From IMG/VR virus record IMGVR_UViG_3300037067_017859, positions 1 to 64,000 of that record: a stretch of DNA of 64,000 nucleotides; one strand, given 5' to 3'. The notes under the pieces are model-generated. The model made no database searches. It was not told where the DNA came from and was given only the letters and a program-made list of their open reading frames with translations. Every line of letters begins with the position of its first letter. Within the stretch, counting starts at the first letter, position 1. Source of the stretch: a virus (taxonomy: Duplodnaviria; Caudoviricetes). Shown here piece after piece: positions 7,234-17,881 of this stretch. Position numbers and translations under genes: made by a program.

Positions 7234-7572
7234 TCAATCTGATATTCCTTTATAAGTTTCGATTCTGAGATTTTTCTCATCCATTGCCGCCTCCACGGCT
7301 TTCTCGACGTCTACAAGTTGTCCAAGACGACGAGACACTTCTGCCTTATGCCAATGTTTAAACGTAATAGAATTAGCCATACGTTCCAATGCTGCTTTTT
7401 TGTTTTGAGCTTGAGATCTGAATTCGCGTCCTTCGCCGAAAGCTCCGGATGCTATGTGCGTGATGCGCACTCCATTTTGGTTGGAGTTTTGATGCTGGCC
7501 ACCAGGGCCGCCAGTGCAGAATGTTACAATCTTAAAATCCTTTTTTGTCAGACTGAATAGAAGCTTTCGCAT
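7234..7572 (-). CDS. Release-factor-like GGQ peptidyl-tRNA hydrolase domain (ArfB/PrfH-like)
   Basis: GGPGGQHQNSNQNGVRITHIASG...RSQAQNKKAALERM; likely start MRKLLF at 7572. Confidence 0.85.
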   Translation of the reverse strand: MRKLLFSLTKKDFKIVTFCTGGPGGQHQNSNQNGVRITHIASGAFGEGREFRSQAQNKKAALERMANSITFKHWHKAEVSRRLGQLVDVEKAVEAAMDEKNLRIETYKGISD

Positions 7573-7636
7573 GGTGTAAACCCGGTTTACTACAGGCGGA
7601 GCCAATCGCAAGTCATTGACTCCGCCGCGGTGAGGG

Positions 7637-7984
7637 TTATTGACCCTTGAGTTGCTCTTCAAGCTTCGCAATTTCGTCCTTGAGAGCTTGACGCTTCTCT
7701 TCGGCAGGCAATAAAGCTTCCAGCCGGGATTTCTTTTCACGAAGCATCTTTTGCAGCCGATCAGCCTGGCTCAAAGAGATTTCCTTACGGATCTCGCGCA
7801 TCTTAGCATCAAGCCATTCGGGTTGCTCGACATTGAGGGTTTTGAACTCTTCCTGGATTACACGTCCAACTGCGGACAGAGTTACAAGATCCTCTAGAGC
7901 AAGACCCTCGGTTTCAAACTTCCGAATCTCGTCTATCAAATACATGGTCCGACCTCCTTTCTTAGTCTTCTTGGTTGCCATCAC
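7637..7984 (-). CDS. Coiled-coil protein coupled to the Ro60-like gene
   Basis: Overlaps or abuts the stop of 7962-9488; K/E-rich helical sequence. Confidence 0.6.
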   Translation of the reverse strand: MMATKKTKKGGRTMYLIDEIRKFETEGLALEDLVTLSAVGRVIQEEFKTLNVEQPEWLDAKMREIRKEISLSQADRLQKMLREKKSRLEALLPAEEKRQALKDEIAKLEEQLKGQ

Positions 7985-9488
7985 TGAACGCCTCCGACAA
8001 TTTCAAAAGCGGAGTCGACATGATCTCCTCCACCAAAGAGTATGGATTGGTCCGCATGCTTTGGACCAAGTTTGGAATACTGTAAAAATCAACATCATCG
8101 CCAAGTTCAAAAACTTGCAGATCAAAGCCACTTTTCTTCATGTTTTCGGCAAGGTCCGAATCTCCCCAACCGTGAATTGCAGATCCACAATGGTAGTAAT
8201 AGACAGGAATATCTTTTTCGGAAATCTTCAAGAGACGCCGGTATTCATCAGTAAATAATGGCGGAGTGTTCTCTTGTCCATCAGAAACGATCGCAATCCC
8301 ATCAATCTCTTCATGCCTTTGCATGGCAGCCCGTAATCCGCAACCGATGGAAGTCCCTCCATTGGCACTAACATTACGGGTCTTCTTCAAAATTTCGTCG
8401 TAGCCTAACCCGGTTACATCCATCGTTTCAGGAACAGTATCAAAGAAGGCAAGGGTGATATTCCCCTTAACCATCTTTGCCAAAGTTCCAGCAACGTGCC
8501 GGGCGGCCTCAATGCACTCAGACATGGATCCTGATTTGTCACCCAGGACCAGCCAATTGCCTTCAATGCTCATATTTTGAATCTGCTTCTCCTGGACAGC
8601 ATTGAGTTTGGCTTTCAGTTTTTCATCGCTGATTGCTTCTGCTGCGCGAGTGGTCTTCAGGACGTTTTTCTTAGACGTAGCCGCTCTCTTGAGAGCAGCC
8701 TCAAATGCTGCACGGAGCGCCGGGACAGTTTTGACGCCCAATTTCTCCAGCATTTTAGTGCTGGTGACGACTTCTGTCGGGCTCATACGCTCAATAAGCG
8801 CAAGAACTAAATCAGGATCCTTAATTTTCTCTCCAAGCGCTCCGTGTGCTATCAAGAACGGAATCTTCCGTTCAAGAATAGTTCCAGCCGCCTCCAGCGC
8901 ACTCATATTGCGCAGGTTGGCAACAGCCTCAAAAACGCTTCCTTTTGGCAGAGGAGACTTGACCGGCTTCCGGCCTTCCTCCTTCGCTTTCAGTCTTTCA
9001 TCCAGAGTATATCCGAAAAGAACGACGTTCACCCGATCAGAGCCAGGCTTAACATCAACCAACGAATAGAGCTCTTTGAGAACTGAACGGTGTTGGATAG
9101 CGGTGAAATCCCATTTCTTCCCTTCCTTCATGTGAAGATAATCCGCAATCACCCGTTTGAGTTGCCGAATATGGCCGACCGGACGAACATCCAGAGCAAA
9201 TCGATAGGCTTTCAGCAACTCTCTTGGATTCAAAAAAGTCAAATGAGCAAGACTGTTTTCGACGAGTTCTTGCGGAAATCCGGGAACGGTCAAACTGACA
9301 ATAGGCAAAGCCGCTTTCGCGTCCCTAATCTGCCCATGAGTGCGATCCCATGCAATAAGATGAGCCAAAAAGTCAGGTTCATTCTGCGCCGCAAGTTGTC
9401 CGATCGCAAGATATTCACGGAGTTTCCCATGAGGGGATTTGCTGAGTTCGGATATAATTTGGTTCTTGGTTATTTTGACTTTTTCCAT
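7962..9488 (-). CDS. Ro60/Rsr-like TROVE + vWA domain protein
   Basis: 508 aa; all-helical N-terminal ~300 aa; C-terminal vWA MIDAS DKSGSM...GGTS...VSDGQEN. Size and architecture match Ro60, and it sits next to Y-RNA-like stems. Confidence 0.72.
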   Translation of the reverse strand: MEKVKITKNQIISELSKSPHGKLREYLAIGQLAAQNEPDFLAHLIAWDRTHGQIRDAKAALPIVSLTVPGFPQELVENSLAHLTFLNPRELLKAYRFALDVRPVGHIRQLKRVIADYLHMKEGKKWDFTAIQHRSVLKELYSLVDVKPGSDRVNVVLFGYTLDERLKAKEEGRKPVKSPLPKGSVFEAVANLRNMSALEAAGTILERKIPFLIAHGALGEKIKDPDLVLALIERMSPTEVVTSTKMLEKLGVKTVPALRAAFEAALKRAATSKKNVLKTTRAAEAISDEKLKAKLNAVQEKQIQNMSIEGNWLVLGDKSGSMSECIEAARHVAGTLAKMVKGNITLAFFDTVPETMDVTGLGYDEILKKTRNVSANGGTSIGCGLRAAMQRHEEIDGIAIVSDGQENTPPLFTDEYRRLLKISEKDIPVYYYHCGSAIHGWGDSDLAENMKKSGFDLQVFELGDDVDFYSIPNLVQSMRTNPYSLVEEIMSTPLLKLSEAFSDGNQED

Positions 9489-10455: not shown

Positions 10456-10471
10456 TAGTCTTTTCAAAGAT

Positions 10472-10610
10472 CTGGAAGAGTCTGCAACGCCTTGGAGCCT
10501 GTAATATAATTCCGCAACTAATTCAGGATCCACGTCAGTCCGATTCGCTTGCTCCCATAGCCAAGAGGCAGTGTGTTTTTAATTGGACTCAGACTCTACA
10601 ATAATCCGGA
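10472..10610 (-). ncRNA. Putative structured RNA between cassettes
   Basis: Inverted repeats AGAGTCTG/CAGACTCT and AGTCCAATT/AATCGGACT; no start codon for its open frame. Confidence 0.35.
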
Positions 10611-10692
10611 GGGGTTCCTGGGACGCTATCCTCTAGAACCCCTATTCAAAATGCCCTCAATTGGGGCGTTTAGTACTTTATGACTGCAAGTC

Positions 10693-10723
10693 GTTTCAAT
10701 CCACGCCTCACGCTGGAGGCGAC
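10693..10723 (-). CRISPR. Solitary type I-C-like CRISPR repeat (no array)
   Basis: GTCGCCTCCAGCGTGAGGCGTGGATTGAAAC: GTCGC start, CGCCTC/GAGGCG hairpin, TGGATTGAAAC end. Confidence 0.75.
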
Positions 10724-10725
10724 GA

Positions 10726-10845
10726 TGGCTGTAAGTCGGCTGAGGAGCATTTGTGTTCGATACCCATCGACCCCCCCATACTATTTTTTGTGGAGGGGGG
10801 CGCCTGCGAGGCGCTACGCATGTAACCTCATCACAGTAACAGCCA
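10726..10845 (-). ncRNA. Cassette F: permuted tmRNA-like tRNA domain (Ala identity)
   Basis: GGGGGGG/CCCCTCC-A acceptor with G3:U70 and A73; stemless D region TCGATGGGTATCGA; aberrant T loop; no anticodon arm. Confidence 0.6.
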
Positions 10846-10865
10846 AATTCTTATTTCTGTGAGGC

Positions 10866-11411
10866 TCATTTGATTACCCGCTTTGCGAGGTAATCAACAA
10901 ACTTATTCGGATCCATCCCGCGCTCTGCGCACCAGACAAAAGGATCCTGCGAACCCTTATCTTTATTGCATGGCTTGCAGGACGTCAGATAATTCGAAGT
11001 GTTATTCTTCTTGTCGTCCATCTCGAGAGGGATAAAGTGATCGATCGTCATCAATCTCTCGCCCATCTTCGCGCCGCAATACATGCATTTAAACCCATCG
11101 GCCGCCCAAACCTTCTGCTGGATCGAGCCGGATATTTCGTATCTCACTTTCCGTTGGAAGATCTTAGGGTTTCCAACGAGTATCTCTGGATCATCGGAGC
11201 GGTGGATAAAGTCTGACCATTCCTCGACAGTCAATTCGTATTGATCCAGTGGACTGACTTGAGAAGTACCAGGAAGGAGTAGCAGTGCGTGAGCTCCTCC
11301 ACCACCTACAAGAAGTCCCTGAATCCTAATCAGCGACCCGATATCGCCATACATAACCGGGCGATTCCGCATTTCCATCAAATAGAACCGTTCCCCGCTT
11401 CCTTTGGACAT
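10866..11411 (-). CDS. HNH endonuclease embedded in the cassette array
   Basis: CMYCG...TIDHFIP...NNTSNYLTSCKPCNKDKG. Confidence 0.85.
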   Translation of the reverse strand: MSKGSGERFYLMEMRNRPVMYGDIGSLIRIQGLLVGGGGAHALLLLPGTSQVSPLDQYELTVEEWSDFIHRSDDPEILVGNPKIFQRKVRYEISGSIQQKVWAADGFKCMYCGAKMGERLMTIDHFIPLEMDDKKNNTSNYLTSCKPCNKDKGSQDPFVWCAERGMDPNKFVDYLAKRVIK

Positions 11412-12139: not shown

Positions 12140-12169
12140 AATGTACTTCTTGGTTATGATCTATGTCAA
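12140..12169 (-). promoter_or_regulatory. Sigma70-type promoter upstream of the wHTH gene, RNA array and Ro60-like gene
   Basis: TTGACA-N18-TACATT. Confidence 0.5.
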
Positions 12170-13823
12170 GCTTTTTCTATTAAGTAAATTTATCGGCAGC
12201 AACGCCATTTCTTCCGCACGATTATTTATTTTTGCAATGAGCCTACGGGCCATTTCTCTGGAAAAAGTATACATAGCATCTTTTTCCGGTCCAACTCCCG
12301 GGAATGGTTCAATGCCCTGTTCATACCACTTCATATCTTCGGCATCCTTGACGAAAGCTTGTTTGGCCCGACCGATCGCAACTGATCGAGCAAGCTTTTT
12401 ATTGAACTGATAGCCCCATTCACAACGACCGATTCCCCATGTGACGAAGGAACCTTGTTTGCCATCAATAATCATTACCACTACGGTTGTCCCTCTGAGG
12501 TCTTTAGTCAGGGCGGCTACGTTGGATAAATCACCTTTTTTCGGTGGGACGTCATTCCGCAGATGGAATACAAATAAACTCTGAGGGATGATGGCATGGA
12601 AAGGTCTTTTAGCGTTTTTCATACATCTCCTTGTTTTTGCTTATCCCATGGCCTGCCAGGCCGACGAGGATGAAGCTGTTTTACTTTGTCCCTATAGTAT
12701 TGTGTTGCTCGGGCCACGTTACATTTTCTGCACACGCGGCGCCTTCTGCCTTTTCCATCAATTACTATGATGAGATTAGGCTTTCGATAGGAATGCCCTC
12801 GAGGGCAATGGGTCTTTGCTTTATTGGCCGATTTAGACCTTCTCATCATAAGTCCGATTTCACGGGAGTTTCATCCTTACGAATGGATTCAAGAATGAGT
12901 TCCTTCCTGGTTCCGGGGCTTATGCTGATATTGTTCCCTTTAAGATCAAGGAAATTATTTATATTCGCTTGATCGATTGGGGTTGAAGCCTCGAGAATAA
13001 TCTGGCCTTTATTATCCTCGAATCGGAATATAACCTTCATTGGTTTCCCTCCAACAAGCTATATACTATTTCCTTATGGATTTGTCAAAGAGTTAGATCT
13101 ACTTTCTTTAATCCTACAGCACATCCAACAACATTGGTATCGCGATTGTCCACTTGTTGAGTTGATCCGAAGCCACGGAATTCATAATGCTTGCCCGTGA
13201 CACCGCCAACTACTGCCATATCCCCCTGACCTTCCCAACGGAAAACAGTAAAACTTGGGACATATGCCCCAACGGACCTTCTTCGATCGCCACAGCAACT
13301 CATTTATTTTCCCTCAATAACAGGAGGCTGATCTTCTTTCGGCGCCGGCGCTGGATCCGGTTCAACCGTAGCGATTGGAGGAGCATCAGACGTTTCCTCC
13401 TTTTTTTGTCCTTCAATGCGTTTAGCCATACTTTTTGAAGGGAAATTTCTCATAGGAGAAGAAGGAGCCGGAGTTTCAGCCTCCCGCAAATCAATAGTTT
13501 GTCCTGCACTGTATTGTCCGGCCGGAATTGGCCTGGAGGCTATTTTTGACTCAGGAATCTCCAAACCATCGTCATCAATAAAAAATACATGAGGTTGCTG
13601 CCGGCCCATGTATTTATCGAGCGCCGGAATCATATTGAGAATCCCTTCTTGCATTTGCCAGTCAGGCCCCATATTTGTCAGCGGCGGGAATACTTCCGGT
13701 TTGAAGGTAGGGGGCTGGATCTCAACCCTATGGAAGCCCATTGTTACTGTGATCCGGACAAATAATCTAAATTGGTCCGCCCACTTCCATCCTCTCCTCG
13801 CTGCCATTGCTATTTGTCCGAAA

Positions 13824-15699: not shown

Positions 15700-16188
15700 T
15701 TACTGGACGGCCACAGGATGTGGTGCAGTTGCCGAATCTTCAAAATCAAACTTAATTTGCATCGCCTGGCGAAGCAGTGGAAGAGGATTGTGCCAGCAAC
15801 CATGACGCTCGATAATCCCAATAAATTCCTCGACATCATGATCTTTGAGATAGAATCCCTTTTCATCGACCGCCAAATGGCAAAGTTCGTGATCGACAAG
15901 AGCTACCTGCTGATCAATGGTGAGAACGTCCCAATATACCTCGTCGACCTCGATTATGAAGTCGAAACCTGTGAGAGCGTGGTAAACCGGGTTTACTAAT
16001 TTTGCCTTTGCCATTGCTGGATGTTTTCCCATTCGCGCCGGCGGAGGAGGGCCATCGCTGTCCTCTGGAGCCAGCTTCATCATGTACGCAATCTTTGCGT
16101 GTGCTATTTCCTGATGATGCATTTTGATCAACGGTTCCGCAACTTCTGCGACTCTTACTGAGGTTTCGTATTCTGCTGCCATTGTCAT
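15700..16188 (-). CDS. Putative phage metallopeptidase
   Basis: ALVDHELCH (HExxH), HDVEEF..IIERHG. Confidence 0.75.
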   Translation of the reverse strand: MTMAAEYETSVRVAEVAEPLIKMHHQEIAHAKIAYMMKLAPEDSDGPPPPARMGKHPAMAKAKLVNPVYHALTGFDFIIEVDEVYWDVLTIDQQVALVDHELCHLAVDEKGFYLKDHDVEEFIGIIERHGCWHNPLPLLRQAMQIKFDFEDSATAPHPVAVQ

Positions 16189-16603: not shown

Positions 16604-17881
16604 TTATTCCTTTGTGATCATACGCTTGTCGATATGCGTGTTGCCAAACGAAAGATATCTCACTGGAATATCGGGCGCAATTTCCGATAATCCATTAATC
16701 ACTGAGCTTGCTCTCCGAAGTCCATAGGAATAATCTTTATGATTTTCCATAATTTCCTTATTAATCTCGCGCAATTGCTCAAATGGTCGGCTACGATAGC
16801 AATCAGCATAAATCCAGATATTCTGATAATTAAGAGCATCCATGTGCGTTACGGCTAATTCGTCCACTTTCCTAAGAACATTCAATGTTTTGAGCGCGTA
16901 TTTGAACGCCGTCGCATCGAAATAGCCAATTCTCAAGTTTCCCTGCCATTTATTATTTTCGTTATGATCCTTCCGCGGCGCCAATCCATGCATGAGTAAA
17001 TCTGCGCTTTCAGTGACAAATGGACCTGCTCCATGCCGGGTAAAGTAAGTTCTAACCACGCCAATGGTTGTTATGTCTGAATCTGGCACACCGTATTTAA
17101 TAATCTCAAGGGCATTATTGAATGTGCAATCGGTCCAGGTAACGTGATTGCCAAAGCCGTGGGTTTCATCCAGGAGGACTCCCTGAGATCCCTCAAAGAC
17201 GACTGCATTTGGAATACTATGTTTTACGTCATAAAATGTGCCAATTTTAACTTTTGGAAGCCATGCTCTTAAATAAAAATCCCTTACGGATTCCGGAAGC
17301 TCATATTCCATTTGATCATAAAGATCTTGTGTTTCTTCACTATTGATGAATTTTTTGCATTGCTGGAGTTTTGTTGCTTTTATCCATTTAAGTCTTTCAA
17401 GAGAATGGTGACATCTAATATCTGAGACCTCGAGGAAAAGACCATCCAATTGATCCGCCCGGGCTTCCCCGATCCCCATTCCGCAAGATCCGTGTCTATT
17501 TTTCCCTCGAGACATTTCTTTGAGTCTATTAGCTCTCCAATGCCATGGGGTTATGATCACACTCTTGGGGTTTATGAGTAGGCGATCGAGACCATCATGA
17601 ACTCCACTGCTTTGCAGATCTACATTTTCAAGGAGCATCGCGTAGGGTTCAATAAGCATATATTCTGAAAGGTAGGTCCAGCACCCGGGAACGAAGGTGC
17701 CAGATCCAAATTGAGAAAATGTATGATGGAGGCCGTTAGGAAGCACAACATTGTGCGCCGCCTGCGGACCCCCATTGTATCGGACTACCCAATTGGCCTT
17801 GTGCTTCCGACAAAGGAAATCAACCATCGTTCCCTTGCCCTCGTCCCCGAAGGCCAAACCTGCGACAATAAATACTTTCAT
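16604..17881 (-). CDS. purA: Adenylosuccinate synthetase-like protein
   Basis: GLAFGDEGKG, RYNGGPQAAHNV, HGSCGMGIG, FEGSQGVLLD, TRHGAGPF. Confidence 0.85.
   Translation of the reverse strand: MKVFIVAGLAFGDEGKGTMVDFLCRKHKANWVVRYNGGPQAAHNVVLPNGLHHTFSQFGSGTFVPGCWTYLSEYMLIEPYAMLLENVDLQSSGVHDGLDRLLINPKSVIITPWHWRANRLKEMSRGKNRHGSCGMGIGEARADQLDGLFLEVSDIRCHHSLERLKWIKATKLQQCKKFINSEETQDLYDQMEYELPESVRDFYLRAWLPKVKIGTFYDVKHSIPNAVVFEGSQGVLLDETHGFGNHVTWTDCTFNNALEIIKYGVPDSDITTIGVVRTYFTRHGAGPFVTESADLLMHGLAPRKDHNENNKWQGNLRIGYFDATAFKYALKTLNVLRKVDELAVTHMDALNYQNIWIYADCYRSRPFEQLREINKEIMENHKDYSYGLRRASSVINGLSEIAPDIPVRYLSFGNTHIDKRMITKE

Follow-up and report, generated by a model that had tools for sequence, protein, structure and literature searches.

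A solitary type I-C CRISPR repeat inserted beside a Y-RNA-like cassette of an uncultured phage as a candidate RNA anti-CRISPR

Single CRISPR repeats carried by phages, termed solitary repeat units (SRUs), can act as RNA anti-CRISPRs (Racrs), and nine Racr candidates tested previously inhibited CRISPR-Cas (PMC10651486). In type I-F, the RNA of a lone repeat draws Cas6f and Cas7f into an aberrant complex in a dose-dependent manner (PMC10651486). For type I-C, the lone repeat RacrIC1, which is transcribed with acrIC5, protected phage from a type I-C system although it agreed with the repeat of that system at only 29 of 34 positions (PMC10651486). Repeats of this subtype form a hairpin between a 2-nt and an 11-nt overhang, and their recognition by Cas5c, a site-specific and metal-independent RNase, is centered on the base of the stem and the U-G-G just downstream, with changes to the loop and the 5' overhang being tolerated (PMC8524198). 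The element described here is not new in kind, as hundreds of type I-C solitary repeats of IMG/VR phages have been catalogued and one has been validated.

Here, a 64,000-nt stretch of phage DNA (the window) was analyzed, comprising the first 64 kb of a 109,283-bp IMG/VR virus record (IMGVR_UViG_3300037067_017859; CheckV completeness 100%). Comparisons were made primarily with a sister phage (L017, 109,212 bp), whose Ro60-like protein is 88% identical, and with the next relatives, L021 and L022 (82% identity; the L022 record is complete). The window holds a 31-nt CRISPR repeat once, on the minus strand with 0 mismatches, and its parts were assigned by minimum free energy (MFE) folding:

10693-10723, minus strand: solitary type I-C CRISPR repeat (SRU), 31 nt; unique exact match and MFE fold.
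10723-10722, minus strand: 5' overhang of the repeat, 2 nt; MFE fold.
10721-10716 with 10709-10704, minus strand: stem of the hairpin, 6 bp; MFE fold.
10715-10710, minus strand: loop of the hairpin, 6 nt; MFE fold.
10693-10703, minus strand: 11-nt 3' tail, UGGAUUGAAAC, the would-be 5' handle of a crRNA; identical in all aligned real arrays and lone repeats.

The initial annotation had described a single repeat with neither a second copy nor cas genes, which held for the complete record. No second copy was found in the window at up to 3 mismatches (shuffled sequences likewise gave 0), and the repeat is unique across the whole 109,283-bp record. A local-alignment scan of both strands of the genome for a degenerate second repeat gave a best other score of 13/31, which is at background level, and the Cas5d, Cas7 and Cas1 families had no match in the 109,283-bp genome. 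The repeat thus stands alone, accompanied by neither cas genes nor another repeat, full or partial, and differs from a CRISPR mini-array, in which at least two repeats surround a spacer, as no second repeat is present in the genome or within 1.5 kb of the SRUs of this clade. Other CRISPR-repeat-like elements were not found in the window by Rfam at E-values up to 5. Folded by itself, the 31-nt RNA adopted the canonical hairpin (-9.7 kcal/mol), which still formed when the whole of the adjacent cassette F was folded together with the repeat, and the predicted Cas5c cut would fall between 10704 and 10703. The repeat lies in non-coding sequence between two structured RNAs and is overlapped by only two ORFs, both short and on the opposite strand, of 54 aa (10661-10825) and 60 aa (10680-10862), the frame of the latter being shifted in the sister phage by a 1-nt indel within its span.

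The subtype given in the initial annotation was confirmed by comparison with real type I-C repeats. With its 2-nt 5' overhang, its 11-nt 3' overhang and a U-G-G right after the stem, the phage repeat has the type I-C architecture, and it shares the 5' GTCGC, the GC-rich hairpin, the 11-nt tail and the length of 31-32 nt with the canonical repeats of Xanthomonas citri (PMC9504256), Streptococcus mutans and Bacillus halodurans (PMC8524198), the X. citri repeat having the same 31-nt frame (PMC9504256). It differs from these in lying outside any array, without spacers, leader or adjacent cas operon, and in its stem of 6 bp and loop of 6 nt versus 7 bp and 5 nt in the model repeats (PMC8524198). 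One genome per prokaryote species was then scanned with a repeat pattern in which the loop was left free. Eight stretches were found, and the 5' GTCGC, a complementary stem and the GCGTGGATTGAAAC tail also build real arrays in bacterial genomes. In an Acidobacteriota MAG (L015), an array of 43-44 units with a period of 65-69 nt carries the same 5' block, stem and tail, and its repeats differ from the phage repeat only in and beside the loop. This array lies directly downstream of cas3, cas5d, cas8c, cas7 and cas4 (Pfam matches to Cas4, Cas7, Cas5d and Cas3); Cas8c (Csd1) is located between Cas7 and Cas5d, and ORFs of the size of cas1 and cas2 are also present, placing the repeat type beside a type I-C operon. 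Of the five genomes with the repeat type, four contain Cas8c. Neither the exact repeat nor the free-loop pattern had a match in the viral contig and metagenome contig collections searched.

A chance resemblance to a CRISPR repeat could be argued from the weakness of the Rfam CRISPR-DR9 match (17.5 bits, with the gathering score set at 45, and E = 3). Against this stand the zero matches expected from shuffles, the 5' block, complementary stem and 14-nt tail common to real type I-C arrays, the syntenic conservation of the site and the recurrence of such repeats in relatives, which effectively refute it. Judged by sequence and fold, the repeat genuinely belongs to the type I-C family and the assignment is sound.

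The scan also returned a lone type I-C repeat that differs from the phage repeat only in the loop (L006:4868-4898, minus strand), on a 5.5-kb contig binned with a Ruminococcus bromii MAG. It has TTGACA...TATAAT-like boxes and a TTC ahead of it and a terminator hairpin about 30 nt after it, and from its sequence it resembles a textbook Racr-like unit.

The surroundings of the phage repeat are as follows:

10726-10845, minus strand: cassette F, a Y-RNA-like clamp with a small tRNA/tmRNA-like cargo, the target of the insertion; fold, and compensatory cargo-stem changes in L021/L022.
10456-10680, minus strand: conserved structured non-coding RNA downstream of the insert; ~91-93% identity to the sister phage.
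7962-9488, minus strand: Ro60-like protein (TROVE-like helical ring plus vWA), 508 aa, just downstream of the cluster; AlphaFold and Foldseek.
10866-11411, minus strand: HNH endonuclease gene directly upstream of cassette F; Pfam HNH, E 8e-9.
12140-12169, minus strand: nearest upstream sigma-70-like promoter (TTGACA-18-TACATT); consensus match only, 10/12.

As described in the initial annotation, only 2 nt (TC, 10725-10724) separate the 3' arm of cassette F from the repeat, which points in the same direction, an orientation shared with the neighboring tRNAs, cassettes and ORFs. One clamp-type cassette of this minus-strand tRNA/cassette cluster gave a sub-threshold match to YrlA (Y RNA-like). 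The RNA on the other side of the insert (~225 nt) matched no Rfam family, and its fold is supported by compensatory pairs, GGGGUUC/GAACCCC in the window versus GGGGCUC/GAGCCCC in the sister phage, and by further compensatory base-pair changes relative to L021/L022. The Ro60-like protein was modeled with a pLDDT of 80.6, and Foldseek aligned it over its full length with Ro60/Rsr and with the Ro60 of Thermus phage phiLo (E 2e-10 to 1e-7, TM 0.53-0.59). By sequence, Pfam returned VWA_CoxE only, with no match to the TROVE family or in the PDB. At least 883 proteins belong to its family, most of them encoded on phage contigs of ~100 kb, and no relative was found in the metagenome contig collection.

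The promoter-like site at 12140-12169 lies ~1.4 kb upstream of the repeat, and its TTGACA is the only one on the minus strand between 4 and 13 kb. No terminator-like site was found on the minus strand between 9300 and 12700, and hence none separates the promoter-like site from the repeat. With 12169-12140 as the nearest promoter-like site and the strand free of terminator-like sites from there down to 9300, the repeat probably has no promoter of its own and would form part of a long small-RNA transcript, for which this site is a possible start. Racr RNAs typically have a strong promoter immediately ahead of them. No known acr or aca neighbors were recognized by Pfam, PHROGs or NCBIfam.

Several other genes of the region were noted. 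Just downstream of the Ro60-like gene, a 168-aa protein with an RF-1 domain is encoded (7234-7740, minus strand), for which the best NCBIfam match was PrfA (E 4.5e-13), followed by PrfH, PrfB and, weakly, ArfB, all far below the curated cut-offs. Bacterial PrfH pairs with the RNA ligase RtcB. The early region also contains a second, HNH-like fragment of 76 aa (12619-12849, minus strand) and a transposase-like ORF of 162 aa (15700-16188, minus strand). A 425-aa ORF (16604-17881, minus strand) matched PHROG 1211 (E 3e-66), which comprises the PurZ-type adenylosuccinate synthetases of phages with 2-aminoadenine (Z-base), and on this match the phage genome may be Z-substituted, which, if true, would affect restriction and perhaps PAM reading. 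In the cassette region of the sister phage, ARAGORN predicted a tRNA with the anticodon UUA, of ochre suppressor type (L017:3843-3917, plus strand).

In L021 and L022, cassette F is joined straight to the downstream RNA, leaving an empty site. Compared with this site, the window carries an insert of 45 nt (44 nt in the sister phage) made up of TC, then the 31-nt repeat and finally a duplicate of the 12-nt stretch GACTTACAGCCA with which the 3' arm of the cassette ends:

10726-10737, minus strand: direct-repeat copy 1, GACTTACAGCCA; sequence, fold and alignment with L021/L022.
10724-10725, minus strand: 2-nt filler TC between copy 1 and the repeat (1 nt, A, in the sister phage); alignments.
10681-10692, minus strand: direct-repeat copy 2, GACTTGCAGTCA, in which the duplicated arm is drifting; missing from the empty site of L021/L022.

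Copy 1 belongs to the functional 3' arm of cassette F, with the CGACUU motif and the strand that is base-paired to the 5' arm (10845-10839). The empty site in L021/L022 implies that the repeat is either a discrete gain with target duplication, or was lost cleanly there by recombination between the two copies. As the closest outgroup has the same cassettes with an empty site, the repeat is, on these alignments, a recent insert and a late add-on of 44-45 nt, outside the cassette design, at the 3' arm of a Y-RNA-like cassette beside the phage Ro60 gene. The 12-nt duplication with its 1-2 nt filler (10681-10737, minus strand) is of a length unlike that produced by Cas1-Cas2 integration, in which a repeat-length stretch is duplicated.

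This late arrival bears on two functions proposed in the initial annotation, namely that the repeat supports viewing the whole locus as a cluster of RNA decoys, and that it could be a Cas5d processing site for the cassette array. Being a late add-on that L021/L022 lack while having the same cassettes, the repeat backs neither. The second proposal would have host Cas5c serve as the RNase that parts cassette F from the downstream RNA, and the exact position of the repeat at the junction of two structured RNAs, together with the site-specific and metal-independent activity of Cas5c (PMC8524198), agrees with it. However, L021/L022 join the same two RNAs directly, the other six cassette junctions have no repeat, and maturation would hang on a non-essential and variable host system, making a processing signal very improbable.

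The structure of the insert is also what would be expected if the repeat were a functionless scar, i.e., a host repeat that the phage took up while recombining with a type I-C array of its host, either illegitimately or between spacer and protospacer, and that is now drifting; the scar may go back to an escape event in which a protospacer within the mutation-intolerant clamp arm was split. Repair or recombination typically leaves a discrete insert of this kind, with a duplicated target and a filler of 1-2 nt, copy 2 is decaying (CGACUU to CGGCUU in the sister phage, and changes at positions 6 and 10 in the window), and the site is common to only two phages. The repeat, which lies at the syntenic place in the sister phage, is moreover conserved at 27/31 positions versus about 91-94% in its flanks, so that its overall conservation is not higher than that of the flanks. 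The distribution of the changes speaks against a scar, as the substitutions spare all positions read by Cas5c. The sister-phage repeat has four changes, namely three adjacent loop bases and one C-to-U change in the stem that keeps a G.U pair, and none of the 17 nt at its 3' end has changed. Assuming four independent changes, the probability that all would fall at tolerated positions by chance is 0.004-0.02, but the three adjacent loop changes may have been one event, which weakens the argument for selection to P about 0.08.

Copy 2 would fold into a 4-bp hairpin directly after the repeat, in which columns 2 and 10 pair as A-U in the window and as G-C in the sister phage. Both lineages have mended the same A:C mismatch of this hairpin by one change each, for which the probability of coincidence is about 0.01 (a rough, post hoc estimate). 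Pairing of copy 2 with the 5' arm, kept via G.U, was considered as evidence and rejected, as six of the seven possible transitions would keep the pairing.

The sequence behind the repeat allows for another explanation, a one-guide cassette, in which the 11-nt handle left by Cas5c cleavage, copy 2 and the next ~22 nt are loaded as a crRNA-like guide. Such a guide could aim the host Cascade at sibling phages that lack the insert, or could act in a Cracr-like manner by repressing a host cas or toxin promoter. Virus-borne mini-CRISPR arrays are reportedly aimed at sibling viruses. As in these arrays and in one-repeat cassettes, the sequence after the repeat corresponds to the uninterrupted site of insert-free relatives: owing to the 12-nt duplication, it exactly restores the empty site, arm and downstream sequence included, and the full copy in the phage is preceded by the end of the repeat rather than a PAM, as in a CRISPR array. 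Unlike these arrays, the insert has no leader, no conserved PAM and no second repeat that would set the 3' end of the guide, its seed has drifted and no matching target phage is known. TTC, the type I-C PAM (PMC8406640), does precede the arm in the sister phage, but the trinucleotide at this position is GCC in the window and L023, TGC in L021/L022 and GAC in L024. With TTC confined to the sister phage, where it looks derived (a 1-in-16 coincidence), the case for capture at a protospacer is weakened. The would-be seed differs at position 2 in the sister phage and at positions 6 and 10 in the window, known empty-site phages match the guide poorly past the arm, and the first 11 nt fold into the hairpin that was improved in both lineages. 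A duplication of this kind is missing from the clade's other lone repeats.

With Cracrs and viral crRNA-like RNAs, the insert has in common a single repeat-like unit followed by a spacer-like stretch in a phage, and such single units with spacer-like elements repress cas promoters, with some predicted to act against type I-C loci (bioRxiv 10.1101/2024.10.29.618823). A Cracr must by definition match a host cas or creT promoter at 9 or more PAM-proximal positions (bioRxiv 10.1101/2024.10.29.618823), whereas the PAM-proximal 10 nt of the insert differ at 3 positions between the window phage and its sister. Near the cas operons of the five sampled genomes, which are not known hosts, the seed had no match. 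We consider a guide function unlikely.

To place the repeat among its relatives, an alignment of 30 Ro60-like proteins was extended to 69 viral loci, and the whole records were searched with the 14-nt tail only, allowing 1 mismatch. Seven matches were obtained, compared with 0 for a reversed control. Six of these have a 5' (G/A)TCGC and a complementary stem of different sequence, and none of the six has a second repeat within 1.5 kb. The seventh (L093 in G017) has no hairpin and was set aside as a chance match. As G010 and G021 share an identical region, the six matches come down to five loci with a lone repeat, each at a different site; one is the syntenic copy of the sister phage and the other four lie elsewhere. 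The sister phage carries a second, different type I-C-like lone repeat (L095:1501-1533, minus strand), which directly adjoins the start codon (ATG) of an ORF of 108 aa close to the portal region; the window phage has a homologous ORF without the repeat at ~64,175, just past the end of the window, and thereby another empty site. The lone repeat of G009 is found between two ORFs, that of G010/G021 behind a promoter-like motif, and that of G011 after a small ORF and ahead of a terminator-like hairpin. All five loci are in short gaps between same-strand ORFs and in sense orientation, and every carrier has a Ro60-like protein at least 60% identical to that of the window phage.

Neutral scars alone would hardly explain this pattern, in which lone repeats were gained at five different sites, all of them in sense within short gaps between genes, with a promoter-like motif ahead of one and a terminator-like hairpin after another, and we regard a functionless scar as an improbable explanation of the phage repeat. 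The repeated, independent and sense-oriented gains instead argue, from the aligned sequences, that such repeats are useful to the clade and that its hosts often have type I-C systems. The initial annotation had taken the repeat as a hint of a type I-C host, which the five independent lone repeats strengthen.

Overall, the phage repeat is best read as an RNA anti-CRISPR, a Racr-type decoy, to which we assign a probability of roughly 55%, and we infer that it would be transcribed, bound by Cas proteins and inhibitory. This reading is drawn from its membership in the type I-C family, its solitary state, the lack of cas genes, its non-coding location and sense orientation, its retention in the sister phage, its gain relative to L021/L022, the recurrence of such repeats in the clade and the precedent of RacrIC1. 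Of the initial annotation, the solitary sense type I-C repeat and the Racr-type decoy as the best available interpretation are supported, while its decoy-cluster and processing-site readings are not. In the proposed mechanism, the phage would transcribe the repeat within an operon of tRNAs and Y-RNA-like small RNAs. In a type I-C host, Cas5c would bind the hairpin at its stem base together with the UGGAUUGAAAC tail, and would probably cut at 10704/10703. The upstream product would be cassette F ending in a hairpin, and the downstream product an 11-nt handle on a structured RNA, which could nucleate a non-targeting Cascade. Cas5c and Cas7 would load onto viral RNA rather than onto host crRNAs, and the outcome would be fewer working Cascade complexes.

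Like RacrIC1 and other SRUs (PMC10651486; Faure et al. 2019 cited there), the phage element is a single, subtype-defined repeat without cas genes, non-coding and in sense, with hairpin and handle intact. RacrIC1 is likewise of type I-C and likewise located inside a longer transcript (bicistronic with acrIC5) instead of being a stand-alone gene (PMC10651486). Unlike RacrIC1, the phage repeat has neither a dedicated promoter nor a recognized acr neighbor, and a 12-nt duplication accompanied its insertion into a tRNA/Ro60 small-RNA cluster, at the 3' arm of a Y-RNA-like cassette. Neither the exact repeat nor these records were found in the compared portion of the SRU tables of PMC10651486. Several points count against a decoy. 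RacrIF1 needs high expression (PMC10651486), whereas the phage repeat is without its own promoter; no acr gene was recognized nearby, the overall conservation of the repeat is not above that of its flanks, and the model leaves the 12-nt duplication unexplained. Furthermore, the genomes with the closest repeats (Rhizobiaceae, Acidobacteriota and Chloroflexia) are presumably much more GC-rich than the phage (45% GC).

Leads on the host from other genes were limited. The terminase has only 25-26% identity to those of cultured phages, a search with the Ro60-like protein matched only one uncultured jumbo phage, and DnaB gave only a vague lead to Bacteroidota (Atlas). The locus had no blastn match among GenBank phages, and none of 123 spacers from the sampled type I-C arrays matched the phage, the longest matches of 11-17 nt being at chance level.

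An account that joins several of these elements is that the insert arose by recombination with a host type I-C array at a spacer targeting the clamp arm, that the split protospacer and the 'self' array context would have permitted escape, and that the repeat was kept as a decoy, perhaps also as a guide against insert-free siblings; we hold this to be quite unlikely. In a bolder variant, the repeat, fused to a Ro60-bound Y-RNA-like scaffold, would tether captured Cas proteins to a Ro60 particle of the phage.

Features specific to this locus, as read from the alignments, are a recent gain evidenced by the empty site and the target duplication, a position at a Y-RNA-like arm beside a phage Ro60 gene, and five gains within one clade. 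If active, the repeat would be a type I-C RNA anti-CRISPR from an uncultured lineage of ~100-kb phages whose genomes combine Y-RNA-like permuted-tRNA cassettes with a homologue of Ro60 and a PurZ-like gene. An experimental pair with and without the insert is readily available in the sister copy and the natural empty-site relative, and the target duplication offers a rare view of how a lone repeat is acquired by a phage. Finally, that a single clade gained such repeats five times independently suggests that type I-C systems have repeatedly exerted strong pressure on it, and these gains provide a handle on the host of these phages.
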